A DNA stretch of 64,000 nucleotides from Escherichia coli (lineage in GTDB: Bacteria > Pseudomonadota > Gammaproteobacteria > Enterobacterales > Enterobacteriaceae), in assembly GCF_003018115.1 (NCBI RefSeq), contig NZ_CP027457.1, one strand, 5' to 3'. The position numbers were made by a program, and so were the translations under genes. Each line of letters starts with the position of its first letter. Position 1 is the first letter of the stretch. Below are positions 5,048 to 20,948 of the stretch, in pieces. The notes beneath the pieces are model-generated. The model had not been told where the DNA came from. It made no database searches and saw nothing but the letters and a program-made list of their open reading frames with translations.

Positions 5048-8000
5048 TTAGTTATTTTGTTGACAGAAAACAGCAATCTCCTGGTCCAGCTCTGCAATGT
5101 GTTCTTTTACAGAGTTCAGCAACTGAAGAATTTCAGGCTTACTGTCATCTGAAACAGGTGTTATTTCTAACTGATGGCTAATATTAATCAACTTTTGCAA
5201 ATTCAGGATGTTAGCCGCACCGTGGATGCGATGAATACACTGATGGAAAGTTCTATTATCGCCAGCTTCTAGTGCATGAAACGCAGCGGATAAATCTTTA
5301 TGTGTTTCATGCTGGAAAGTCATGAGAATCTCCTGCATCAGTTGTAGATCGTTCGCCGTATTATTTTTCAGGGCCTCGATATCAAGGTGGCGATACTGAG
5401 GTACAATATGCGCAACCTGGTGTAACTGACTTAAATGTGTTTTCAGTACATCCAGGGTCAACGGTTTGAACAAACATAAGTTCATGCCGCAATTTAACCC
5501 TTTTTCACGTTCGTTAGCCTGTGCGTTGGCTGTAAGCCCCCAGATGGGTAAGGACGAATTTTGCTCACGGAGTTTGCGAGTCAACTCAAAACCATCCATA
5601 TTCGGCATATTAACGTCAGTAATAAGCAGATCATAATGTTGCATACTGACTTTGTGTAGCGCTTGCACACCATCAGTGGCTTCGTCAACATCATATCCTA
5701 ATAGATTTAGCTGGCGTTTGAGTAATAGCCTGTTGGTCGGATGATCATCCGCGATTAATATGCTCAACTTTTCAGGTAGTGTGATAGGTTGTTCTGCTTT
5801 TGCCTCGACAGCCGCCACTTGTTGGGTAATTTCTACCGGGATTGTGATCGTAAATGTTGTTCCTATGCCTGGATGACTTTCTAATGACAAATCACCCTGC
5901 ATGTTTTTAATTAATTCTTTGCAGATCATTAAGCCTAAACCAGAACCTGTTTGCTGACGACCTGCACTTGTTTGGCTATAACGTTTAAACAGTTGTTGTT
6001 GTTCTTCCTGTGATAATCCACTTCCAGAATCCATAATCGTCATTTTGATTACAGCGTGGTTGTCATCAATGTGACCCAGGGAGGTCGTAATTTTTACTGC
6101 CCCCTCGGTGGTAAATTTGAGAGCATTACTCAGTAAATTTGATAAGACCTGCTTAAACGCCTGAGGGTCGATCTTAACTAGGTAATGTTCAGGAAACGTA
6201 CTGCTGCAACTTAATGCGATCGATTTGCTTGCAGCAATCGCACCGAAAGAGTGACAAGTGTTCTGGACTAAAGTAGGAATATCGACCCATTGTGGTTGAA
6301 GTTGATAGTTACCCGATTCAATTTTGTCGACATCAAGGATTTCACCAATTAAGCCGAGGAGTGATTGTCCGGTGGCGTAGGCAAGTGAAATCGCCTCCAC
6401 CCGTTGTTCCTTGCTAAGACCAGAACCCGACAGAAGTTCCAGGAAGCCCATAATAGAGCTTATTGGTGTTCTTATTTCGTGACTCATCGTTGCCAGAAAC
6501 TGACTTTTTGCTACGGTAGCCTTTATCGCTTTATTTTTTTCTACCTCGAGTGCATTAATTAGATCACGCGTTTCAGTAATATCTTGCCAACCACAAATAT
6601 ATACTGCATTGTCACTTGCAGGAAGATTGCATAATGTATGCCAGTGATTAATGCATCTTTTCTCGATGCCATTATCAATTTCAAATACCTGTGTGTATAT
6701 TGTTCGGTTTTCTTTCGTCTCTGCTGTGACTTCATGCGTATTAGAAAAAACATCTTTAAAGGGTGATTCACTGTTTTCTAATGGCAACATTGCATTTTTG
6801 TAGTAATCAGCAGTGAAATAATGTTCAAATGCACTATTGTGACTAATGACATTACCTTGCCAGTTTACAACATAAGTTGGATTCGGTAAGGAGTCCGAGA
6901 GCGCTTTCCGGAATGATATTTGGTTTTCTAAATCACCCTGAATGACTTTACGACGACGAACTGAGCGTAACAGGTAGAATCCCCATAAAAGGCTACTGCC
7001 AACTAATAAAACGGATAATGTCGTAACAATATAAAATTGCTCGCTATAGAGGTCCCATGTGTCAATGGTCACATTGGGCATTTTAATCCATTTTTCCGTC
7101 AGGCGCAGAACTTCGCTTGGGGGGATTGCATTCAGTGCTTTATTAATAATATCCTTAAGTTCCGGTTCTCCGCGAGGAAAAGCGAACGAAAGCGATGCAT
7201 TCGGAACGCCGGGAATAAGAAAATGATAAAGTTCATTAGGATAGTAATGGTCGATCATGTAACGCGAATTTAGCTGTGTCGCGACCAGAGCATCAAGTTC
7301 ACCTTCCTTGACCTTGTGAAATGCAGCGCTGGCGTTATCGACTTTTATCCACTCTACCTCCGGATACATCTCTTTTAATTGCGAATGCAGCTCATAATAA
7401 TATGGAATGGCAACTTTCATTCCTTTTTTTAATGTTTGTTCACTGTCAGGCGCTTTTTGCATGACAAAAACGTAAGGCGTTGTTATGAAGGCTTCAGCAA
7501 ATAAAACATTATTTTCTCTATCTTCACTATAAATAGCACCGGGTAATATATCCCATCCGCCGGGATTCAGCTGTGTTCCGGCATGGATATTGTGTGAAAC
7601 GGTGATCGGAGAAAAATTTAAACCTGTTTGCAAGGTAATAATATTAAGAATGTCCCCCATAACGCCCCGAACCGAGCCATTTTCATCCGTCATAGAATAG
7701 GGGGGCGAGTAAGGATTTTCCAGCACCTTTAAATCGGGATGCTGCTTAATCCACTGTTTTTCATGTTCAGTGAGTTCTAATGGCTTGTTCAGAAAGGCTA
7801 GGTTTCCTGTATCAAGCCAATTTTGTGATACTTCATAGCGAACTTCATTTGTTAAAGCATCAACAAATCGATTGAGTACTTCATTAAGAATGACAGATTC
7901 TTTTCTGGTTAAGAAGAAGTTATATTGACGCGGTGAGTTATAATATTTCACTACATTTAAGGAGTGAGTGAAATAGCGGGAAATCATACTGCTGGTAATG

Positions 8001-9675: not shown

Positions 9676-10839
9676 GTGGAACAGATTAATTCAAATAAAA
9701 AACATTCTAACAGAAGAAAATACTTTTCTTTATTGGCGATAGTTTTATTTATTGCGTTTTCAGGTGCTTATGCCTATTGGTCAATGGAATTAGAAGACAT
9801 GATTAGTACAGATGACGCCTATGTCACGGGGAATGCAGATCTAATTTCTGCACAAGTCTCAGGTAGTGTCACTGTAGTTAATCATAAAGATACGAACTAC
9901 GTTCGACAGGGTGACATTTTAGTTTCACTGGATAAAACTGATGCCACTATCGCACTCAATAAAGCTAAAAATAATCTGGCAAATATTGTTCGGCAAACGA
10001 ATAAACTGTACTTACAGGATAAACAATACAGTGCCGAAGTCGCTTCAGCACGTATTCAGTATCAACAATCTTTAGAAGATTATAACCGTCGTGTGCCTTT
10101 AGCGAAGCAGGGGGTTATTTCAAAAGAAACGCTGGAGCATACCAAAGATACGTTAATAAGTAGCAAAGCGGCATTGAATGCCGCTATCCAGGCTTATAAA
10201 GCGAATAAAGCTTTAGTAATGAACACACCATTAAACCGTCAGCCACAAGTCGTTGAAGCGGCGGATGCAACTAAAGAAGCCTGGTTGGCGCTTAAACGTA
10301 CGGATATTAAGAGTCCGGTTACCGGCTATATTGCCCAGAGAAGTGTTCAGGTCGGCGAAACAGTGAGCCCCGGACAATCGTTAATGGCTGTCGTACCGGC
10401 ACGTCAAATGTGGGTTAATGCCAACTTTAAAGAAACACAACTCACAGATGTACGGATTGGTCAATCGGTCAATATTATCAGCGATCTTTATGGTGAGAAT
10501 GTTGTGTTTCATGGCCGGGTGACAGGGATCAATATGGGAACCGGCAATGCGTTCTCCTTATTACCTGCACAAAATGCGACAGGGAACTGGATCAAAATCG
10601 TTCAGCGTGTACCGGTTGAAGTTTCTCTTGATCCAAAAGAACTCATGGAACACCCCTTGCGCATTGGTTTATCGATGACTGCAACTATTGATACGAAGAA
10701 CGAAGACATTGCTGAGATGCCTGAGCTGGCTTCAACCGTGACGTCCATGCCGGCTTATACCAGTAAGGCTTTAGTTATCGATACCAGTCCGATAGAAAAA
10801 GAAATTAGCAACATTATTTCGCATAATGGACAACTTTAA
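9676..10839 (+). CDS. emrK: Multidrug efflux membrane fusion protein EmrK
   Basis: 387-aa ORF, N-terminal TM anchor then coiled-coil/HlyD-like region; 1-nt overlap with emrY. Confidence 0.92.
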   Translation: MEQINSNKKHSNRRKYFSLLAIVLFIAFSGAYAYWSMELEDMISTDDAYVTGNADLISAQVSGSVTVVNHKDTNYVRQGDILVSLDKTDATIALNKAKNNLANIVRQTNKLYLQDKQYSAEVASARIQYQQSLEDYNRRVPLAKQGVISKETLEHTKDTLISSKAALNAAIQAYKANKALVMNTPLNRQPQVVEAADATKEAWLALKRTDIKSPVTGYIAQRSVQVGETVSPGQSLMAVVPARQMWVNANFKETQLTDVRIGQSVNIISDLYGENVVFHGRVTGINMGTGNAFSLLPAQNATGNWIKIVQRVPVEVSLDPKELMEHPLRIGLSMTATIDTKNEDIAEMPELASTVTSMPAYTSKALVIDTSPIEKEISNIISHNGQL

Positions 10840-12377
10840 TGGCAATCACTAAATCAACTCCGGCACCATTAACCGGTGGGACGTTATGGTGCGTCACTAT
10901 TGCATTGTCATTAGCGACGTTTATGCAAATGTTGGATTCCACTATTTCTAACGTCGCAATACCGACAATATCTGGCTTTCTGGGAGCATCAACAGACGAA
11001 GGCACCTGGGTTATCACCTCGTTTGGCGTAGCAAATGCCATTGCGATCCCTGTTACCGGCAGGCTGGCACAAAGAATAGGCGAATTAAGGTTATTTTTAC
11101 TTTCAGTCACTTTTTTTTCGCTGTCTTCCTTAATGTGTAGTTTATCGACCAATCTTGATGTGCTGATATTTTTTAGAGTCGTTCAGGGGTTAATGGCAGG
11201 GCCGTTAATTCCACTGTCACAGAGTTTATTATTAAGGAATTATCCACCAGAAAAAAGAACATTTGCTCTGGCATTATGGTCAATGACCGTGATTATCGCT
11301 CCGATATGTGGGCCGATATTGGGCGGTTATATTTGTGATAACTTTAGCTGGGGTTGGATATTTTTAATCAATGTCCCTATGGGTATTATCGTCCTGACAT
11401 TATGCTTAACCTTACTTAAAGGAAGAGAAACTGAGACTTCACCGGTCAAAATGAATCTACCAGGACTGACCCTGTTAGTGCTCGGTGTTGGTGGCTTGCA
11501 AATTATGCTTGATAAAGGGCGCGATCTGGATTGGTTCAACTCGAGTACAATAATAATATTAACAGTAGTATCAGTTATTTCTCTGATCTCTTTAGTCATT
11601 TGGGAGTCGACCTCAGAGAACCCGATTCTTGATCTCAGTTTGTTTAAGTCCCGTAACTTCACTATTGGTATTGTGAGTATCACATGCGCGTATTTATTTT
11701 ACTCTGGAGCGATCGTCCTTATGCCGCAGTTACTCCAGGAAACGATGGGGTATAATGCGATATGGGCCGGACTTGCTTATGCGCCCATCGGCATCATGCC
11801 ACTATTAATTTCACCTTTGATAGGACGTTATGGCAACAAAATAGACATGCGGTTGTTAGTGACATTTAGTTTTTTGATGTATGCGGTTTGCTATTACTGG
11901 CGTTCTGTGACATTTATGCCAACGATTGATTTTACAGGCATCATTTTGCCACAGTTTTTCCAGGGATTCGCCGTTGCCTGTTTCTTTTTACCCTTAACAA
12001 CGATTTCGTTTTCAGGGTTGCCAGATAATAAATTTGCCAATGCCTCGAGTATGAGTAATTTTTTTCGTACCTTGTCAGGATCAGTTGGTACATCGTTGAC
12101 AATGACGCTGTGGGGGCGACGCGAATCGTTACACCATAGTCAGTTGACAGCAACCATCGATCAATTTAACCCTGTGTTTAATTCATCGTCACAAATTATG
12201 GATAAATACTATGGTTCGCTTTCAGGAGTTCTTAATGAAATTAATAATGAAATAACCCAGCAGTCACTTTCTATTTCTGCAAATGAGATTTTCCGTATGG
12301 CGGCTATTGCTTTTATCTTACTTACGGTTTTGGTTTGGTTTGCGAAACCGCCGTTTACAGCGAAAGGCGTTGGGTGA
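10839..12377 (+). CDS. emrY: MFS multidrug efflux pump EmrY (14-TMS, EmrB family)
   Basis: 512-aa hydrophobic ORF translationally coupled to emrK. Confidence 0.92.
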   Translation: MAITKSTPAPLTGGTLWCVTIALSLATFMQMLDSTISNVAIPTISGFLGASTDEGTWVITSFGVANAIAIPVTGRLAQRIGELRLFLLSVTFFSLSSLMCSLSTNLDVLIFFRVVQGLMAGPLIPLSQSLLLRNYPPEKRTFALALWSMTVIIAPICGPILGGYICDNFSWGWIFLINVPMGIIVLTLCLTLLKGRETETSPVKMNLPGLTLLVLGVGGLQIMLDKGRDLDWFNSSTIIILTVVSVISLISLVIWESTSENPILDLSLFKSRNFTIGIVSITCAYLFYSGAIVLMPQLLQETMGYNAIWAGLAYAPIGIMPLLISPLIGRYGNKIDMRLLVTFSFLMYAVCYYWRSVTFMPTIDFTGIILPQFFQGFAVACFFLPLTTISFSGLPDNKFANASSMSNFFRTLSGSVGTSLTMTLWGRRESLHHSQLTATIDQFNPVFNSSSQIMDKYYGSLSGVLNEINNEITQQSLSISANEIFRMAAIAFILLTVLVWFAKPPFTAKGVG

Positions 12378-12484
12378 TGGTTAAAGGAGGGGGTTATAGC
12401 GGGTAAGACCGGGGATCTTAAGTCTGTGCCATCGGCAGCATCGCTCACCCAGGGAAAGGATGGCGATGCTGAATTGAAAATTAA

Positions 12485-13813
12485 TTAGCGGCCTTTTGCC
12501 AGATATTGCTCCATCTCTTCTTCCGGCACCATTCCACCTCCCGTCGCCCACACCAGATGAGTGGCATTATGCAGTTGTTCTGCGCTGAAACCGTGCATCT
12601 GTTGGTAACTTACTGATGCACACACGCGCTGAGGTCCGGCCATACCCGCCAGTGCCGAAGGTTCAAGACGAATACCTTCTTCCTGCGCCAGCCAGCCAAG
12701 CATGTCATACATGGTTTGATCGCTAAGGGTATAGAAGCCATCCAGCAGACGCTCCATTGCCCGCCCGACAAAGCCTGATGCGCGACCAACAGCAAGGCCA
12801 TCCGCTGCGGTAAGGTTGTCGATACCAATATCCTGAACAGAAATCTGATCGTGTAATCCTGTATGGACGCCTAACAACATACAAGGGGAGTGCGTTGGTT
12901 CGGCAAAAAAGCAGTGAACATGATCGCCAAACGCCAGTTTAAGCCCGAATGCGACGCCACCAGGACCACCGCCAACACCACACGGCAGATAGACAAACAG
13001 AGGGTTATCAGCATCGACGATACGGCCTTGCTGGGCAAATTGCGCTTTAAGACGCTGGCCAGCGACGGAATACCCAAGGAACAACGTGCGGGAATTTTCG
13101 TCATCAATAAAGAAACAGTTCGGGTCAGACTGCGCTGCTTTACGTCCTTCCTCGACGGCAACACCATAATCTTGCTCATATTCCACGACCGTAACGCCAT
13201 GGCTGCGCAGTTTCGCTTTTTTCCATGCCCGGGCATCAGCAGACATATGCACTGTCACCTTAAAGCCAATGCGGGCGCTCATAATGCCGATTGATAACCC
13301 CAGATTTCCGGTTGAGCCCACAGCAATGCTGTATTGGCTAAAGAACTGTTTAAACTCCGGAGAAAGCAGTTTGCTGTAGTCATCATCAAGCGTCAGCAAC
13401 CCCGCTTCCAGAGCCAGTTTTTCTGCGTGTGCCAGGACTTCATAAATCCCGCCGCGTGCTTTTATGGAGCCGGAAATGGGCAAATGGCTATCTTTTTTCA
13501 GTAACAGTTGCCCGCTGATTGGTTGTTGATATTCCTTTTCCAGCCGTTTTTGCATAGCCGGAATGGCAACCAGTTCTGATTCAATAATCCCCCCAGTGGC
13601 AGCAGTTTCAGGAAATGCTTTTGCCAGATAGGGTGCAAAACGGGATAAGCGCGCATGGGCGTCCTGAACATCCTGTTCGGTCAGGCCAACATAAGGTAAA
13701 CCTTCAGCCAATGAGGTCGTGCCAGGATTAAACCAGGTGGTTTCTTTAAGAGCAACCAGATCCTTTACCAACGGATACTGGGCGATGAGCGAGTTCATTT
13801 TAGCGTTTTCCAT
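12485..13813 (-). CDS. dsdA: D-serine ammonia-lyase (PLP-dependent)
   Basis: 442-aa [19 protein letters not shown]...; PLP lysine motif SGSIKARGG. Confidence 0.95.
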
Positions 13814-13830
13814 AGTACGTCTCTTTGCGC

Positions 13831-14061
13831 TTAGATGATAAATGACAGCAGGAATGTGCCCGCCAGAGCGACGACTGAAGCGATAAATGTCGCTGTCGTA
13901 TAGTATTTAAATGTTTCATTGAGCGTAGCGCCGCAATATTGCTTCACCAGCCAGAAAAGCGAGTCCATAACGATCGTGCAGCCAATCGCGCCTGAACCGA
14001 TAGCAATCGCAATAATTTCCGGGCTGATGTCGGGATACAGCGGCAGCACAATGATCCATAT
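13831..14061 (-). pseudogene. dsdX: 3-prime remnant of D-serine permease gene dsdX (about 75 C-terminal codons only)
   Basis: Hydrophobic GntP-like C-terminal segment directly upstream of dsdA; frame closed by TAA at 14062-14064; no upstream dsdX sequence and no dsdC. Confidence 0.75.
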
Positions 14062-14291
14062 TTATATTTTCTTCTCCAGGTTGGCGATGCCAGTTGGCAT
14101 GTTTTACTTACTTGCCTATATGGTTACTCGTTGGCGAGAACAGAGGCGGAATTTGGGACAATTGTCCGGCAATTATTGTTATTTTTTATTGTATTGCCGT
14201 GTCGGGTGATAGGGCGTTGAGAATTTCGTTGGATCTCGCCAGTGACGTCTGTTTCTGCTACAGTGCCCGTTTTACGGCAAACGGCTTGGGT

Positions 14292-15287
14292 ATGGCTTCA
14301 TTAAAGGATGTCGCACGCCTGGCGGGAGTGTCGATGATGACAGTCTCCCGGGTGATGCATAATGCAGAATCTGTGCGTCCTGCAACGCGTGACCGCGTAT
14401 TGCAGGCAATCCAGACCCTGAATTATGTTCCTGATCTTTCCGCCCGTAAGATGCGCGCTCAAGGACGTAAGCCGTCGACTCTCGCCGTGCTGGCGCAGGA
14501 CACGGCTACCACTCCTTTCTCTGTTGATATTCTGCTTGCCATTGAGCAAACCGCCAGCGAGTTCGGCTGGAATAGTTTTTTAATCAATATTTTTTCTGAA
14601 GATGACGCTGCCCGCGCGGCACGTCAGCTGCTTGCCCACCGTCCGGATGGCATTATCTATACTACAATGGGGCTGCGACATATCACGCTGCCTGAGTCTC
14701 TGTATGGTGAAAATATTGTATTGGCGAACTGTGTGGCGGATGACCCAGCGTTACCCAGTTATATCCCTGATGATTACACTGCACAATATGAATCAACACA
14801 GCATTTGCTCGCGGCGGGCTATCGTCAACCGTTATGCTTCTGGCTACCGGAAAGTGCGTTGGCAACAGGGTATCGTCGGCAGGGATTTGAGCAGGCCTGG
14901 CGTGATGCTGGACGAGATCTGGCTGAGGTGAAACAATTTCACATGGCAACAGGTGATGATCACTACACCGATCTCGCAAGTTTACTCAATGCCCACTTCA
15001 AATCGGGCAAACCAGATTTTGATGTTCTGATATGTGGTAACGATCGCGCAGCCTTTGTGGCTTATCAGGTTCTCCTGGCGAAGGGGGTACGTATCCCGCA
15101 GGATGTCGCCGTAATGGGCTTTGATAATCTGGTTGGCGTCGGGCATCTGTTTTTACCGCCGCTGACCACAATTCAGCTTCCACATGACATTATCGGGCGG
15201 GAAGCTGCATTGCATATTATTGAAGGTCGTGAAGGGGGAAGTGTGACGCGGATCCCTTGCCCGCTGTTGATCCGTTGTTCCACCTGA
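14292..15287 (+). CDS. cscR: LacI-family sucrose operon repressor CscR
   Basis: ORF-track frame 14094..15287; start placed at MASLKDVARLAGVSMMTVSRV (LacI-type HTH), C-terminal periplasmic-binding-like sugar domain; adjacent to cscA/K/B. Confidence 0.85.
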   Translation: MASLKDVARLAGVSMMTVSRVMHNAESVRPATRDRVLQAIQTLNYVPDLSARKMRAQGRKPSTLAVLAQDTATTPFSVDILLAIEQTASEFGWNSFLINIFSEDDAARAARQLLAHRPDGIIYTTMGLRHITLPESLYGENIVLANCVADDPALPSYIPDDYTAQYESTQHLLAAGYRQPLCFWLPESALATGYRRQGFEQAWRDAGRDLAEVKQFHMATGDDHYTDLASLLNAHFKSGKPDFDVLICGNDRAAFVAYQVLLAKGVRIPQDVAVMGFDNLVGVGHLFLPPLTTIQLPHDIIGREAALHIIEGREGGSVTRIPCPLLIRCST

Positions 15288-15294
15288 TATTATG

Positions 15295-16728
15295 CTAACC
15301 CAGTTGCCAGAGTGCCCCATGTTGCACCACAGCCACTCCGTGGGAGGCATAAAGCGACAGTTCCCGTTCTTCTGGCTGCGGATAGATTCGACTACTCATC
15401 ACCGCTTCCCCGTCGTTAATAAATACTTCCACGGATGATGTATCGATAAATATCCTTAGGGCGAGCGTGTCACGCTGCGGGAGGGGAATACTACGGTAGC
15501 CGTCTAAATTCTCGTGTGGGTAATACCGCCACAAAACAAGTCGCTCAGATTGGTTATCAATATACAGCCGCATTCCAGTGCCGAGCTGTAATCCGTAATG
15601 TTCGGCATCACTGTTCTTCAGCGCCCACTGCAACTGAATCTCAACTGCTTGCGCGTTTTCCTGCAAAACATATTTATTGCTGATTGTGCGGGGAGAGATA
15701 GATTGATGCTGCTGGCGTAACGACTCAGCTTCGTGTACCGGGCGTTGTAGGAGTTTGCCATTGCTCTCTGATAGCTCGCGCGCCAGCGTCATGCAGCCTG
15801 CCCAGCCTTCACGTTTTGAGGGCATTGGCGATTCCCACATATCCATCCAGCCGATAACAATACGCCGACCATCCTTCGCTACAAAGCTTTGTGGTGCATA
15901 AAAGTCATGCCCGTTATCAAGTTCAGTAAAATGCCCGGATTGTGCAAAAAGTCGTCCTGGCGACCACATTCCGGGTATTACGCCACTTTGAAAGCGATTT
16001 CGGTAACTGTATCCCTCGGCATTCATTCCCTGCGGGGAAAACATCAGATAATGCTGATCGCCAAGGCTGAAAAAGTCCGGACATTCCCACATATAGCTTT
16101 CACCCGCATCAGCGTGGGCCAGTACGCGATCGAAAGTCCATTCACGTAATGAACTGCCGCGATAAAGCAGGATCTGCCCCGTGTTGCCTTGGTCTTTCGC
16201 CCCGACTACCATCCACCATGAGTCGGCTTCACGCCACACTTTAGGATCGCGGAAGTGCATGATTCCTTCTGGTGGAGTGAGGATCACACCCTGTTTCTCG
16301 AAATGAATACCATCCCGACTGGTAGCCAGACATTGTACTTCGCGAATTGCATCGTCATTACCTGCACCATCGAGCCAGACGTGTCCGGTGTAGATAAGTG
16401 AGAGGACACCATTGTCATCGACAGCACTACCTGAAAAACACCCATCTTTGTCATTATCGTCTCCTGGCGCTAGCGCAATAGGCTCATGCTGCCAGTGGAT
16501 CATATCGTCGCTGGTGGCATGTCCCCAGTGCATTGGCCCCCAGTGTTCGCTCATTGGGTGATGCTGATAAAACGCGTGATAACGATCGTTAAACCAGATC
16601 AGGCCGTTTGGATCGTTCATCCACCCGGCAGGAGGCGCGAGGTGAAAATGGGGATAGAAAGTGTTACCCCGGTGCTCATGAAGTTTTGCTAGTGCGTTTT
16701 GCGCCGCATGCAATCGAGATTGCGTCAT
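15295..16728 (-). CDS. cscA: Sucrose-6-phosphate hydrolase / invertase CscA (GH32)
   Basis: GH32 motif WMNDPNG, RDP and EC motifs; ORF-track frame 15295..16737 with start likely at MTQSRLH. Confidence 0.9.
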   Translation of the reverse strand: MTQSRLHAAQNALAKLHEHRGNTFYPHFHLAPPAGWMNDPNGLIWFNDRYHAFYQHHPMSEHWGPMHWGHATSDDMIHWQHEPIALAPGDDNDKDGCFSGSAVDDNGVLSLIYTGHVWLDGAGNDDAIREVQCLATSRDGIHFEKQGVILTPPEGIMHFRDPKVWREADSWWMVVGAKDQGNTGQILLYRGSSLREWTFDRVLAHADAGESYMWECPDFFSLGDQHYLMFSPQGMNAEGYSYRNRFQSGVIPGMWSPGRLFAQSGHFTELDNGHDFYAPQSFVAKDGRRIVIGWMDMWESPMPSKREGWAGCMTLARELSESNGKLLQRPVHEAESLRQQHQSISPRTISNKYVLQENAQAVEIQLQWALKNSDAEHYGLQLGTGMRLYIDNQSERLVLWRYYPHENLDGYRSIPLPQRDTLALRIFIDTSSVEVFINDGEAVMSSRIYPQPEERELSLYASHGVAVVQHGALWQLG

Positions 16729-16762
16729 TTTAATCATCCTGGTTAAGCAAATTTGGTGAATT

Positions 16763-16774
16763 GTTAACGTTAAC
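16763..16774. promoter_or_regulatory. Putative CscR operator 1 (12-bp perfect palindrome GTTAACGTTAAC)
   Basis: Perfect palindrome with CG centre typical of LacI-family operators, in cscA/cscK divergent promoter region; identical second copy 64 bp away. Confidence 0.55.
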
Positions 16775-16807
16775 TTTTATAAAAATAAAGTCCCTTACTT
16801 TCATAAA

Positions 16808-16823
16808 TGCGATGAATATCACA
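16808..16823. promoter_or_regulatory. Putative CRP site between csc operators
   Basis: tgcga-N6-tcaca resembles CRP consensus TGTGA-N6-TCACA. Confidence 0.35.
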
Positions 16824-16826
16824 AAT

Positions 16827-16838
16827 GTTAACGTTAAC
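16827..16838. promoter_or_regulatory. Putative CscR operator 2 (GTTAACGTTAAC)
   Basis: Second identical palindrome, same flanking T..T, upstream of cscK. Confidence 0.55.
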
Positions 16839-16943
16839 TATGACATTTTGTGATCGAATATGCATGTTTTAGTAAATCCATGACGATTTTGCGAAAAAGA
16901 GGTTTATCACTATGCGTAAGTCAGATGAATTTAAGGGAAAAAA

Positions 16944-17858
16944 ATGTCAGCCAAAGTATGGGTTTTAGGGGATGCGGTAGTAGATCTCTTGCCAGAATCA
17001 GACGGGCGCCTACTGCCTTGTCCTGGCGGCGCGCCAGCTAACGTTGCGGTGGGAATCGCCAGATTAGGCGGAATAAGTGGGTTTATAGGTCGGGTCGGTG
17101 ATGATCCTTTTGGTGCGTTAATGCAAAGAACTCTGCTAACTGAGGGAGTCGATATCACGTATCTGAAGCAAGATGAATGGCACCGGACATCCACGGTGCT
17201 TGTCGATCTGAACGATCAAGGGGAACGTTCATTTACGTTTATGGTTCGCCCCAGTGCCGATCTTTTTTTAGAGACGACAGACTTGCCCTGCTGGCGACAT
17301 GGCGAATGGTTACATCTCTGTTCAATTGCGTTGTCTGCCGAGCCTTCGCGTACCAGCGCATTTACTGCGATGACGGCGATCCGGCATGCCGGAGGTTTTG
17401 TCAGCTTCGATCCCAATATTCGTGAAGATCTATGGCAAGACGAGCATTTGCTCCGCTTGTGTTTGCGGCAGGCGCTACAACTGGCGGATGTCGTCAAACT
17501 CTCGGAAGAAGAATGGCGACTAATCAGTGGAAAAACACAGAACGATCGGGATATATGCGCCCTGGCAAAAGAGTATGAGATCGCCATGCTGTTGGTGACT
17601 AAAGGTGCAGAAGGGGTGGTGGTCTGTTATCGAGGACAAGTTCACCATTTTGCTGGAATGTCTGTGAATTGTGTCGATAGCACGGGGGCGGGAGATGCGT
17701 TCGTTGCCGGGTTACTCACAGGTCTGTCCTCTACGGGATTATCTACAGATGAGAGAGAAATGCGACGAATTATCGATCTCGCTCAACGTTGCGGAGCGCT
17801 TGCAGTAACGGCGAAAGGGGCAATGACAGCGCTGCCATGTCGACAAGAACTGGAATAG
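16944..17858 (+). CDS. cscK: Fructokinase CscK (PfkB/ribokinase family)
   Basis: 304-aa ORF with PfkB signature DSTGAGDAF; between cscA and cscB. Confidence 0.88.
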   Translation: MSAKVWVLGDAVVDLLPESDGRLLPCPGGAPANVAVGIARLGGISGFIGRVGDDPFGALMQRTLLTEGVDITYLKQDEWHRTSTVLVDLNDQGERSFTFMVRPSADLFLETTDLPCWRHGEWLHLCSIALSAEPSRTSAFTAMTAIRHAGGFVSFDPNIREDLWQDEHLLRLCLRQALQLADVVKLSEEEWRLISGKTQNDRDICALAKEYEIAMLLVTKGAEGVVVCYRGQVHHFAGMSVNCVDSTGAGDAFVAGLLTGLSSTGLSTDEREMRRIIDLAQRCGALAVTAKGAMTALPCRQELE

Positions 17859-17929
17859 TGAGAAGTAAACGGCGAAGTCGCTCTTATCTCTAAATAGGAC
17901 GTGAATTTTTTAACGACAGGCAGGTAATT

Positions 17930-19177
17930 ATGGCACTGAATATCCCATTCAGAAATGCGTACTATCGTTTTGCATCCAGTTACTCATTTCTCTTTTTTAT
18001 TTCCTGGTCGCTGTGGTGGTCGTTATACGCTATTTGGCTGAAAGGACATCTAGGGTTGACAGGGACGGAATTAGGTACACTTTATTCGGTCAACCAGTTT
18101 ACCAGCATTCTATTTATGATGTTCTACGGCATCGTTCAGGATAAACTCGGTCTGAAGAAACCACTCATCTGGTGTATGAGTTTCATCCTGGTCTTGACCG
18201 GACCGTTTATGATTTACGTTTATGAACCGTTACTGCAAAGCAATTTTTCTGTAGGTCTAATTCTGGGGGCGCTCTTTTTTGGCTTGGGGTATCTGGCGGG
18301 ATGCGGTTTGCTTGACAGCTTCACCGAAAAAATGGCGCGAAATTTTCATTTCGAATATGGAACAGCGCGCGCCTGGGGATCTTTTGGCTATGCTATTGGC
18401 GCGTTCTTTGCCGGCATATTTTTTAGTATCAATCCCCATATCAACTTCTGGTTGGTCTCGCTATTTGGCGCTGTATTTATGATGATCAACATGCGTTTTA
18501 AAGATAAGGATCACCAGTGCGTAGCGGCGGATGCGGGAGGGGTAAAAAAAGAGGATTTTATCGCAGTTTTCAAGGATCGAAACTTCTGGGTTTTCGTCAT
18601 ATTTATTGTGGGGACGTGGTCTTTCTATAACATTTTTGATCAACAACTTTTTCCTGTCTTTTATGCAGGTTTATTCGAATCACACGATGTAGGAACGCGC
18701 CTGTATGGTTATCTCAACTCATTCCAGGTGGTACTCGAAGCAGTGTGCATGGCGATTATTCCTTTCTTTGTGAATCGGGTAGGGCCAAAAAATGCATTAC
18801 TTATCGGTGTTGTGATTATGGCGTTGCGTATCCTTTCCTGCGCGCTGTTCGTTAACCCCTGGATTATTTCATTAGTGAAGCTGTTACATGCCATTGAGGT
18901 TCCACTTTGTGTCATATCCGTCTTCAAATACAGCGTGGCAAACTTTGATAAGCGCCTGTCGTCGACGATCTTTCTGATTGGTTTTCAAATTGCCAGTTCG
19001 CTTGGGATTGTGCTGCTTTCAACGCCGACTGGGATACTCTTTGACCACGCAGGCTACCAGACAGTTTTCTTCGCAATTTCGGGTATTGTCTGCCTGATGT
19101 TGCTATTTGGCATTTTCTTCCTGAGTAAAAAACGCGAGCAAATAGTTATGGAAACGCCTGTACCTTCAGCAATATAG
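17930..19177 (+). CDS. cscB: Sucrose:H+ symporter CscB (MFS, oligosaccharide:H+ symporter family)
   Basis: 415-aa 12-TMS ORF MALNIPFRNAYYRFASSYSF...; LacY-like. Confidence 0.9.
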   Translation: MALNIPFRNAYYRFASSYSFLFFISWSLWWSLYAIWLKGHLGLTGTELGTLYSVNQFTSILFMMFYGIVQDKLGLKKPLIWCMSFILVLTGPFMIYVYEPLLQSNFSVGLILGALFFGLGYLAGCGLLDSFTEKMARNFHFEYGTARAWGSFGYAIGAFFAGIFFSINPHINFWLVSLFGAVFMMINMRFKDKDHQCVAADAGGVKKEDFIAVFKDRNFWVFVIFIVGTWSFYNIFDQQLFPVFYAGLFESHDVGTRLYGYLNSFQVVLEAVCMAIIPFFVNRVGPKNALLIGVVIMALRILSCALFVNPWIISLVKLLHAIEVPLCVISVFKYSVANFDKRLSSTIFLIGFQIASSLGIVLLSTPTGILFDHAGYQTVFFAISGIVCLMLLFGIFFLSKKREQIVMETPVPSAI

Positions 19178-19185
19178 ACGTAAAC

Positions 19186-19230
19186 TTTTTCCGGTTGTTG
19201 TCGATATCTCCATATCCCTCAACCGGAAAA
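19186..19230 (+). terminator. Long inverted repeat downstream of cscB (possible terminator or island/IS junction structure)
   Basis: 11-bp stem ttttccggttg / caaccggaaaa with a 22-nt loop; no clean U-run. Confidence 0.35.
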
Positions 19231-19239
19231 TAATAATAG

Positions 19240-19420
19240 TAAAATGCTTAGCCCTGGTGACTGCTCCCCGCCCTGTCGGGCGAGGCTTCCCACTTCTTAA
19301 GCTGCAACCGTCTGTGTGACGGATTTACGCTGGCCTCCATGGGCAGAAACGACGAGTCCCGCCGCTTGTAATTCCAGTATGCCCTTGCGTTTGATGTTGA
19401 GCGCCGCGTTGATATCGCGG
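19240..19420 (-). ncRNA. Putative TnpB-associated omega RNA (reRNA) at tnpB 3-prime end and IS right end
   Basis: Inferred from the architecture of IS200/IS605 TnpB systems; subterminal hairpin ccccgccc-tgtc-gggcgagg at 19266-19285, 12 nt past the tnpB stop; exact boundaries not determinable by eye. Confidence 0.3.
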
Positions 19421-20466
19421 TCATGTTCAACTCCACACTCTGGACACTGCCAGATGCGCTTATGTAATGGCATCTCCGACATTTTGTGACCGCAGCAGTG
19501 GCAGATTTTCGAACTGGCGAACCATTGATCCAGTTTCACCAGATGCACACCTTTCTCTGTTGCTTTGTATTCCAGTTTTGTGATGAATCCAGACCATCCA
19601 GCATCGCCTATCGCACGAGCCAGATGGTGATTTTTCATCATATTTGCCGTTTTCAATGTCTCGACAATTACCGCTTGGTTTTCGTCAACAATTGCGCGAG
19701 ATAACTTGTGCTGGAAATCGGCACGGGCACTGGCTACCCGTTCGTGAACGGCTGCAAGTTGTATTCTGGCTTTGCGCCTGTTTGCGCTCCCTTTTTTCTT
19801 ACGGGACAGTGCTTTCTGCTTCCGGCGAAGGTTGCGACTTGCATTGATTAGGTGGCGGGGACTGGCAATTTTATTGCCGTCCGATTTGATGACAAAATGC
19901 GCCAGCCCCATATCCAGCCCTGTCACATTTGATATCAGTGCGGGCTTTGCCGGCGCTTCCATCCCGTCGTCACAGAGTAACGACGCGTAGTATTTCCCGG
20001 TTGCGCTGCGGCTCAACGTGATACTTTTCAGCATTCCCGTAATTTCACGATGTAAACGCGCTTCAATCGGCAAGATTTTCGGTATTTTTATCGCACCATC
20101 AAGGACTTTTATGCCAACACAATGATAGCTCGATTGTCTGCCGTGTTTACTTTTAAAGGTAGGTTTACCTGCTTTCAGTTTCGGATTGAAAAAGTTAGAA
20201 AAAGCCACGTCGAGGTTAATTACCGCCTGCTGCAACGCAATAGAATCATATTCTTTAAGCCATCCATACCGGCGGGATTTCTTCGCCACTGCAAGCAGTG
20301 GTTTGAGGTCTTTACGCGGGTTTAAATTTACGCGGTGCCGCTGGTAAGAATGTTTCTTGATATGCAGAGCTTTGTTGTACGCAAAACGCACTGCACCGAA
20401 CTGGGCGTTGATAAATTCAGCCTGTTCTGGTGTCGGGTAGATGCGTACTTTTGTTGCTCTTAACAT
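19297..20466 (-). CDS. tnpB: TnpB (OrfB) RNA-guided endonuclease-like protein, RuvC-like with zinc finger
   Basis: 389-aa ORF; RuvC-I GLDMGL, RuvC-II VIVETLK, Zn finger CHCCGHK..CPECG, RuvC-III HDRDINAALNI. Confidence 0.9.
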   Translation of the reverse strand: MLRATKVRIYPTPEQAEFINAQFGAVRFAYNKALHIKKHSYQRHRVNLNPRKDLKPLLAVAKKSRRYGWLKEYDSIALQQAVINLDVAFSNFFNPKLKAGKPTFKSKHGRQSSYHCVGIKVLDGAIKIPKILPIEARLHREITGMLKSITLSRSATGKYYASLLCDDGMEAPAKPALISNVTGLDMGLAHFVIKSDGNKIASPRHLINASRNLRRKQKALSRKKKGSANRRKARIQLAAVHERVASARADFQHKLSRAIVDENQAVIVETLKTANMMKNHHLARAIGDAGWSGFITKLEYKATEKGVHLVKLDQWFASSKICHCCGHKMSEMPLHKRIWQCPECGVEHDRDINAALNIKRKGILELQAAGLVVSAHGGQRKSVTQTVAA

Positions 20467-20522
20467 AATCAGCGCTCATTGATATAATTCTTTTATTTTA
20501 ACGCTTTAGGTGAATATATCAA

Positions 20523-20948
20523 TTGAGTAATCATGATGATTTACTGGCGGGATTTCTCCGCAAACGACACAGTGTCAGTAAGCTGGTTGTGCACCTTATT
20601 TTTACGACAAAGTATCGACGCAAACTATTCGACAGTCAGATGATCGCTCAGTTGCGTGAGGCTTTTGGCTCCGCTGCGGCAAAGCTTGAATGCGAAATTA
20701 TTGAGATGGACGGGGAGCCAGACCATGTACACCTGCTGGTTGCCTACCCGCCAAAACTGGCGGTCAGTGTGATGGTCAATAATTTAAAATCGGTATCATC
20801 ACGTTTGCTACGCCAGCAGAACGCGCATTTACGTATGCAGAGTAAAACGGGGCTTTTGTGGTCGAGATCGTACTTTGTCTGTAGCACCGGAGGGGCAACG
20901 ATTGAAACGCTCAGAGCCTACGTTCAGAGTCAGTCAACACCTGATTGA
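20523..20948 (+). CDS. tnpA: IS200-type Y1 (HUH) transposase TnpA
   Basis: HUH motif HVHLL and catalytic Tyr region SYFVCSTGGA; annotated frame begins at TTG so true start uncertain; hairpin terminator at 20954-20973. Confidence 0.85.
   Translation: MSNHDDLLAGFLRKRHSVSKLVVHLIFTTKYRRKLFDSQMIAQLREAFGSAAAKLECEIIEMDGEPDHVHLLVAYPPKLAVSVMVNNLKSVSSRLLRQQNAHLRMQSKTGLLWSRSYFVCSTGGATIETLRAYVQSQSTPD

Follow-up and report, generated by a model that had tools for sequence, protein, structure and literature searches.

The DNA analysed here, a stretch of 64,000 nucleotides from Escherichia coli that we refer to as the window, very probably carries the standard csc-type allele of the argW-dsd region, in which dsdA is left as an orphan gene without an inducible promoter. 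As expected for a member of this class of replacement alleles, dsdX is cut at the common breakpoint with the 5' flank of the sucrose repressor gene cscR abutting, while dsdA is kept beside emrY, dsdC is missing and argW lies at the far side of the region (Table 1). According to the annotation, the remainder of the window represents ordinary core chromosome reaching from fadL to hisP. The annotation of ISEc46 was carried over from the chromosome of E. coli F9792 by a coordinate offset of +3299. As window and F9792 chromosome differ at only 4 of 21,101 and 5 of 46,185 positions, we regard F9792 as a fair proxy for the source genome.

Table 1. Features of the argW-dsd region, given in window coordinates.
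Feature	Position	Strand	Basis or remark
emrK	9676-10839	+	profile match, F9792 annotation
emrY	10839-12377	+	NCBIfam EmrB-type permease; annotated emrY in F9792; conserved left neighbour of dsdA
dsdA, D-serine ammonia-lyase, 442 aa, intact, orphaned	12485-13813	-	TIGR02035
Native dsdX-dsdA spacer, 17 bp, with dsdA ribosome-binding region	13814-13830	-	invariant in the 15 loci compared
dsdX remnant (pseudogene), codons 374-445 of 445 plus stop	13831-14048	-	NF007395; RefSeq note 'missing N-terminus'
Junction, left part, csc-haplotype-specific	14049-14181		match distribution over 5,426 genomes
Junction, right part, native cscR 5' flank, presumably cscR promoter and leader	14182-14291	+	homology in L020 (Escherichia sp. 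MOD1-EC7003)
cscR, LacI-family sucrose operon repressor, 331 aa	14292-15287	+	LacI-family matches; 'sucrose operon repressor CscR' in O157:H7 RefSeq
cscA, sucrose hydrolase	15295-16737	-	TIGR01322, 480 bits; annotation
Palindrome TGTTAACGTTAACT, two copies, putative CscR operators, cscA-cscK intergenic	16762-16775 and 16826-16839		motif scan
cscK, fructokinase	16944-17858	+	NF006957, 506 bits
cscB, sucrose permease (oligosaccharide MFS transporter)	17930-19177	+	TIGR00882, 595 bits
ISEc46 (IS200/IS605 family): tnpB 19297-20466 (-), tnpA 20523-20948 (+)	19297-20948		F9792 annotation
Integrase remnant, Arm DNA-binding domain only	21019-21300	-	F9792 annotation
argW, tRNA-Arg(CCU), recombination/integration hotspot bounding the variable island	21462-21536	-	ARAGORN; annotation

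Profile matches and annotation agree on cscR, cscA, cscK and cscB in canonical order and orientation. Of these genes, cscA lies on the strand of dsdA and converges with cscR across a gap of 7 bp. The ISEc46 element and the Arm-only integrase found between cscB and argW are leftovers of mobile DNA traffic at the tRNA hotspot.

Alignment against a genome with an intact dsdCXA locus places the end of homology to dsdX at 14048|14049, leaving a remnant of 218 bp that consists of 72 codons and the stop codon and corresponds to positions 374-445 of the 445-position DsdX profile. Over the residues kept, it is 97% identical to the K-12-type protein in tblastn, and the junction has turned its first codon, ATG, into GTG. 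The original prediction had rightly recognised that dsdA is intact, that dsdX is truncated to its 3' end and that the junction is shared divergently with cscR, which starts at 14292 on the plus strand; its estimate of about 75 remaining dsdX codons has to be lowered to the 72 found by profile and alignment, and its junction of 230 bp (14062-14291) was drawn 13 bp off, since the alignment gives 243 bp (14049-14291) between dsdX remnant and cscR. When a 451-bp probe spanning the breakpoint was compared with other genomes, all intact-dsdX genomes among the matches listed lost homology at probe position 99, that is, at window position 14048, and no csc-bearing genome with another left boundary was seen among the matches listed for this probe. 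The distal part of the remnant carries deletions in some csc+ strains, and a 21-bp deletion within the remnant (13983-14003) was noted in E203449.

The regulatory half of the native locus is gone. Searching the 64-kb window by tblastn with K-12-type DsdC, DsdX and DsdA returned dsdA and the remnant as the only matches, with no DsdC homologue and nothing of DsdX residues 1-373, and at the nucleotide level blastn (word size 7, E<=0.01) detected neither dsdC nor the dsdC-dsdX intergenic region nor the 5' portion of dsdX in the window. The window thus holds none of the parts by which a functional DsdC-regulated dsdXA operon is recognised beyond dsdA itself: it contains no LysR activator gene dsdC, no promoter/DsdC-binding region and no full-length dsdX. 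The claim that dsdC is absent and the DsdC-dependent dsdXA promoter missing is therefore borne out by both searches. K-12 and the UPEC strain CFT073 carry intact dsdCXA. The window matches them collinearly, at about 97-99% identity, over dsdA, the spacer and the final 72 codons of dsdX, but lacks their dsdC, their divergent promoter region and the first 373 codons of dsdX, so that DsdC- and D-serine-dependent induction cannot operate in it. Normally, dsdA transcripts arise solely from the dsdXA operon, of which dsdA is the second gene and which is activated by DsdC and D-serine; with the promoter and activator of this operon gone, dsdA is left without an inducible promoter.

The original prediction would have been overturned by a complete copy of dsdC and dsdX elsewhere in the genome. 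We looked for such a copy with a chimeric junction plus dsdC megablast query, for which a single matching place per genome means that no dsdC lies elsewhere. dsdC proved to be absent from the five closest complete genomes, namely F9792 and four genomes that are 100% identical over junction and cscR, and EDL933 likewise returned a single place and no dsdC elsewhere. Together with the single dsdA place in F9792, this speaks against a second dsd locus: the window holds the known dsdA and remnant only, and a single place was found in F9792, its relatives and EDL933. Two of the four junction-identical relatives of F9792 are O169:H41, and the five genomes belong to the ETEC O169:H41 lineage.

The arrangement as such is a textbook-level known polymorphism, present in about half of the complete E. 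coli genomes. Published accounts of EC3132, EDL933 and E. coli W already report that cscRAKB took the place of dsdC and part of dsdX at the argW hotspot, and the association of this exchange with mutually exclusive use of sucrose and D-serine dates back to 1979 (PMC4366372, PMC3032704, PMC11251922, PMC4699771). Arrangement and sucrose/D-serine exclusivity are also covered in PMC13054288, where a dsdA/cscR/dsdX triplex PCR across the junction is used to type strains. The csc-type islands of O157:H7 EDL933, E. coli W and EC3132 (Connolly et al. 2015; O'Boyle et al. 2020) share the order emrY-dsdA-dsdX'-cscR-cscA-cscK-cscB-...-argW with the window, as well as the same dsdX breakpoint and the absence of dsdC. 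Junction and cscR are 98.4-99.1% identical to those of O157:H7, with a few substitutions in the junction, and the differences from the islands of EDL933, W and EC3132 amount to allelic detail only, as the present lineage adds ISEc46 between cscB and argW and three C-terminal substitutions in DsdA. The orphaned dsdA is hence a real and, apart from the slightly misplaced boundaries, correctly interpreted observation that is already known. Earlier accounts of the csc-type argW-dsd island are reportedly those of Jahreis et al. 2002 and Moritz & Welch 2006, and the intact dsdCXA locus is said to have been described by Norregaard-Madsen et al. 1995.

To place the junction in the population, we compared it with 5,426 complete E. 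coli genomes. A query comprising 12300-15400 was covered to at least 80% in 2,660 of them, and the 451-bp breakpoint probe was matched in full by 2,658, O157:H7 included; a junction present in 2,658-2,660 of 5,426 genomes is not a chance feature. A divergent Escherichia lineage (L017) has the junction too, with about 90% identity, and there a secondary deletion has removed 104 bp (13936-14039). As the junction is retained in so divergent a lineage, its sequence looks like the product of one old event that was later inherited and spread by recombination. Smaller deletions within the junction were observed in JNE132847 and NCCP15648 (12 bp, about 14215-14226) and in FAH (13 bp, about 14080-14092).

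The junction had been described as being of unassigned origin, but this does not hold for all of it: its right part, 14182-14291, has a homologous counterpart in the csc locus of Escherichia sp. MOD1-EC7003. A search with a degenerate pattern for the first codons of cscR, using one genome per species, returned four loci. In MOD1-EC7003 (L020) homology extends from cscB to 14182 at 95% identity, after which an lpxP-like gene replaces the dsdX side, and in Citrobacter amalonaticus it begins at 14251 at 82% identity, beside ytfRT/yjfF-like ABC transporter genes. The cscR-cscA-cscK(-cscB) genes of both are homologous to those of the window at these identities, and the cscR 5' flank is common to the window and MOD1-EC7003 for 110 bp and to C. 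amalonaticus for 41 bp; in contrast to the window, both loci have other left neighbours, no dsdX remnant and no 14049-14181 segment. Because 14182-14291 travels with cscR in another chromosomal context, we interpret it as the native cscR 5' flank, and one new result of this study is that, judged by this homology, the right 110 bp of the junction belong to the csc segment. The last ~75 bp before cscR were moreover invariant in 11 csc+ strains.

For the left part, a 137-bp query (14049-14185) was matched in 2,691 of the 5,426 genomes and gave no match in 2,735, and all of the matches listed adjoin the dsdX remnant. Judging from this distribution, it is likewise new that the left 133 bp of the junction are confined to the csc haplotype among the matches listed. 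Apparent plasmid matches of the junction turned out to be mis-filed E. coli chromosomes, and apparent phage matches were prophage records that include flanking chromosome, so that neither was retained as its source. In L020, a cryptic Escherichia, the csc genes abut the lpxP-like acyltransferase gene within 5089-6524; dsdA, emrKY and evgAS are absent there or the region is rearranged, and the contig ends 1.4 kb further on.

The orphaned gene itself encodes a full-length D-serine ammonia-lyase by the measure of TIGR02035 and NF002823. The complete 442-aa reading frame scores 814 bits against TIGR02035 (cut-off 368) with residues 9-438 covered, carries the SGSIKARGG PLP-lysine motif at residue 114 and is 99.3% identical to K-12-type DsdA. 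The three differing residues, R415H, T417A and N435E, all lie at the C-terminus, encoded at the dsdA 3' end (window 12485-12600). The DsdA protein of the csc+ A1 strain is identical to the K-12-type protein, and its allele differs from dsdA of the window at 11 nucleotides, 5 of them within the last 90 nt; this cluster of differences at the 3' end may represent a small recombination patch.

For dsdA and its flanks, we set 12 csc+ loci, picked so as to span the identity range, against 4 dsd+ loci. If dsdA were a decaying relic whose apparent constraint reflects inherited polymorphism only, one would point to the csc+ strain CUVET18-1475 (L005), the one locus of the 12 in which dsdA is annotated as frameshifted, and to the fact that its function is dispensable in the laboratory. 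The frameshift, however, results from one missing nucleotide in an A6 homopolymer (nt ~592); either dsdA is truly inactivated there or the long reads contain a sequencing error. dsdA is intact in the other 11 csc+ loci. Variants of dsdA private to csc+ strains comprise 25 synonymous and 9 non-synonymous changes, equivalent to a per-site ratio of non-synonymous to synonymous changes of ~0.11, and dN/dS amounts to 0.07 within csc+ (11 alleles) and 0.045 within dsd+. As dsdA is furthermore present in over 98% of 1,591 strains (PMC4366372), we consider the relic explanation highly improbable.

Nucleotide diversity within the csc+ loci varies along the region. It amounts to 0.082 in the emrY-dsdA spacer, to 0.021-0.025 in dsdA and to only 0.008 in the 167 bp upstream of dsdA (13814-13980), which comprise the spacer and the proximal remnant and are thus ~10-fold less diverse than the emrY-dsdA spacer. 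In the distal remnant (13981-14048), which is decaying in csc+ strains, diversity is 0.055 in csc+ and 0.017 in dsd+. The emrY-dsdA spacer (12378-12484) is hypervariable among E. coli strains: of its 107 bp, 25 positions segregate in the 15 loci compared. Within the small sample of 11 csc+ loci, these values suggest that dsdA and ~170 bp upstream of it are still constrained in csc+ strains, and this apparent selective constraint on an orphan dsdA and its upstream sequence is new here. Since purifying selection is hard to square with a fully silent gene, some useful expression of dsdA probably occurs in some condition.

The low diversity of the proximal segment could mean that an expression element not yet recognised is constrained there, or it could be due to gene conversion with dsd+ strains as donors. 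Constraint would fit either 'dsdAp', which O'Boyle et al. locate 115 bp ahead of dsdA (PMC7486766), or conditional read-through from the cscA promoter. In the former case, a weak constitutive promoter in the dsdX 3' end, ~115 bp before the ATG, would provide low basal levels of DsdA that are useful at micromolar gut D-serine, which would account for the conservation of the proximal remnant. The contrast between the diversity of 13814-13980 and that of the distal remnant and the emrY-dsdA spacer in csc+ loci argues for such a promoter, as do the low yet non-zero fluorescence of wild-type reporters and the 104-bp deletion in L017, which leaves the proximal 122 bp in place. Against it, no pair of -35 and -10 elements near -115 does better than shuffled sequence; the proximal part could also be conserved without any promoter through recombination with dsd+ strains, where it forms part of a coding sequence; and the diversity values derive from 11 csc+ loci only. 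We therefore treat the internal promoter as a possible but doubtful explanation.

Our motif searches revealed no good promoter motif for dsdA. A consensus scan for sigma-70-like sites returned none on either strand within 12300-14500 or 14000-19400, and the best dsdA-directed position weight matrix score within 13790-14291 was 7.6, for a site overlapping the ATG, compared to a median best score of 8.7 in shuffled sequence. No substitute promoter for dsdA scoring above shuffled sequence thus emerged from consensus and matrix scans, and the finding that no sigma-70-like promoter upstream of dsdA beats shuffled sequence is also new here. Rfam families were not found in the junction, where a sub-threshold match to a eukaryotic snoRNA was the only hit and was dismissed as chance. 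CscR operators were described by Jahreis 2002, according to PMC11251922. The operator-like palindrome TGTTAACGTTAACT did not occur near dsdA at up to 3 mismatches, and its restriction to the cscA-cscK region agrees with the published view that CscR does not act on dsdA directly.

The original prediction further held that any dsdA transcription must start within the dsdX remnant or the junction. That wording is too strong: cscA shares the strand of dsdA, a search of this strand between the two genes gave no intrinsic terminator that convinced us, and mutants in which the cscA promoter drives dsdA have been published. O'Boyle et al. 2020 (PNAS; PMC7486766) conducted in EHEC, on the same arrangement in E. 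coli O157:H7, essentially the experiments that the prediction had proposed. In this strain, which is D-serine sensitive, the chromosomal dsdA is a 'previously nonfunctional' or silent deaminase gene (PMC7486766). Spontaneous deletions of 1,120 bp or 5,637 bp that remove cscR raised dsdA expression 33-fold, with 2,001 or 257 RFU, and enabled D-serine catabolism, and wild-type cscAp-to-dsdA::gfp fragments gave 63-134 RFU compared to 2,001 RFU after cscR-cscA deletion (PMC7486766). Activation was attributed to read-through from cscAp or z3622p, with CscR being no direct repressor of dsdA (PMC7486766). EHEC does not grow on D-serine and is inhibited by it, and plasmid-borne dsdA restores growth (PMC4366372). 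These results match the expectation that D-serine detoxification is uninducible or fortuitously driven once promoter and activator are gone, an expectation that consequently stands. By analogy, we infer that the silence of dsdA, D-serine sensitivity and activation by cscAp read-through hold in the present O169:H41-like strain as well.

Read-through might also take place in the unrearranged locus. Sucrose would inactivate CscR, and transcription from the cscA promoter would cross the 7-bp gap, run antisense over cscR and the junction and enter dsdA, rendering the D-serine deaminase inducible by sucrose instead of D-serine. This is compatible with the common strand of cscA and dsdA and with the observation that, from 15295 to 13813, a weak hairpin (13865-13846) is all that resembles a terminator on the dsdA strand, as well as with the apparent selective maintenance of dsdA and its proximal upstream region in csc+ strains. 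When CscR was lost in EHEC and cscAp came to lie closer to dsdA, dsdA rose 33-fold, with a read density tracking that of cscA, and an isogenic cscR deletion conferred D-serine tolerance (PMC7486766). On the other hand, the wild-type cscAp-to-dsdA reporter, which carries cscR and was assayed without sucrose, was weak at 63-134 RFU, and ~1.5 kb of untranslated antisense RNA facing the convergent cscR would make a good Rho termination substrate. Surveys score csc+ strains as D-serine non-utilisers in tests without sucrose. On balance, sucrose-dependent read-through in the intact arrangement appears unlikely to us. Taken more broadly, the orphan dsdA may have been rewired and selectively maintained through low-level or sucrose-dependent transcription, arising either by cscA-promoter read-through or from a weak start in the conserved 170 bp, a reading we regard as rather improbable.

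The csc-type allele with an orphan dsdA remains our preferred explanation of the window. In this view, an ancient replacement imported cscB-cscK-cscA-cscR together with the cscR 5' flank, at the expense of dsdC, the promoter region between dsdC and dsdX and the first 373 codons of dsdX. Left behind were dsdA with its ribosome-binding spacer and a 218-bp piece of the dsdX 3' end. The orphan dsdA is transcribed weakly and constitutively at best, and in the tested enterohaemorrhagic strain this does not suffice for D-serine to be detoxified or used; csc-type strains are sucrose-positive and D-serine-sensitive. dsdA stays functional, and rearrangements that admit read-through from the same-strand, CscR-repressed cscA promoter can switch it on.

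The csc/dsd alternative at argW is an established niche determinant. D-serine is tolerated and utilised by strains carrying dsdCXA, among them UPEC, NMEC and many isolates associated with Crohn's disease, whereas csc+ strains, including most of phylogroups B1, D and E as well as EHEC, use sucrose and are D-serine sensitive. The window assigns its strain, of an ETEC-like lineage, to the csc type, and the strain is predicted to be sucrose-positive and D-serine-sensitive. This phenotype, with D-serine non-utilisation or sensitivity and a silent dsdA, has been recorded for O157:H7, E. coli W and in strain surveys (PMC7486766, PMC4366372, PMC3032704, PMC13054288). Of modest interest beyond this is that an apparently unexpressed dsdA and its adjacent upstream sequence seem to remain under purifying selection; if dsdA has indeed been rewired, useful DsdA activity would be kept in half of E. 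coli.
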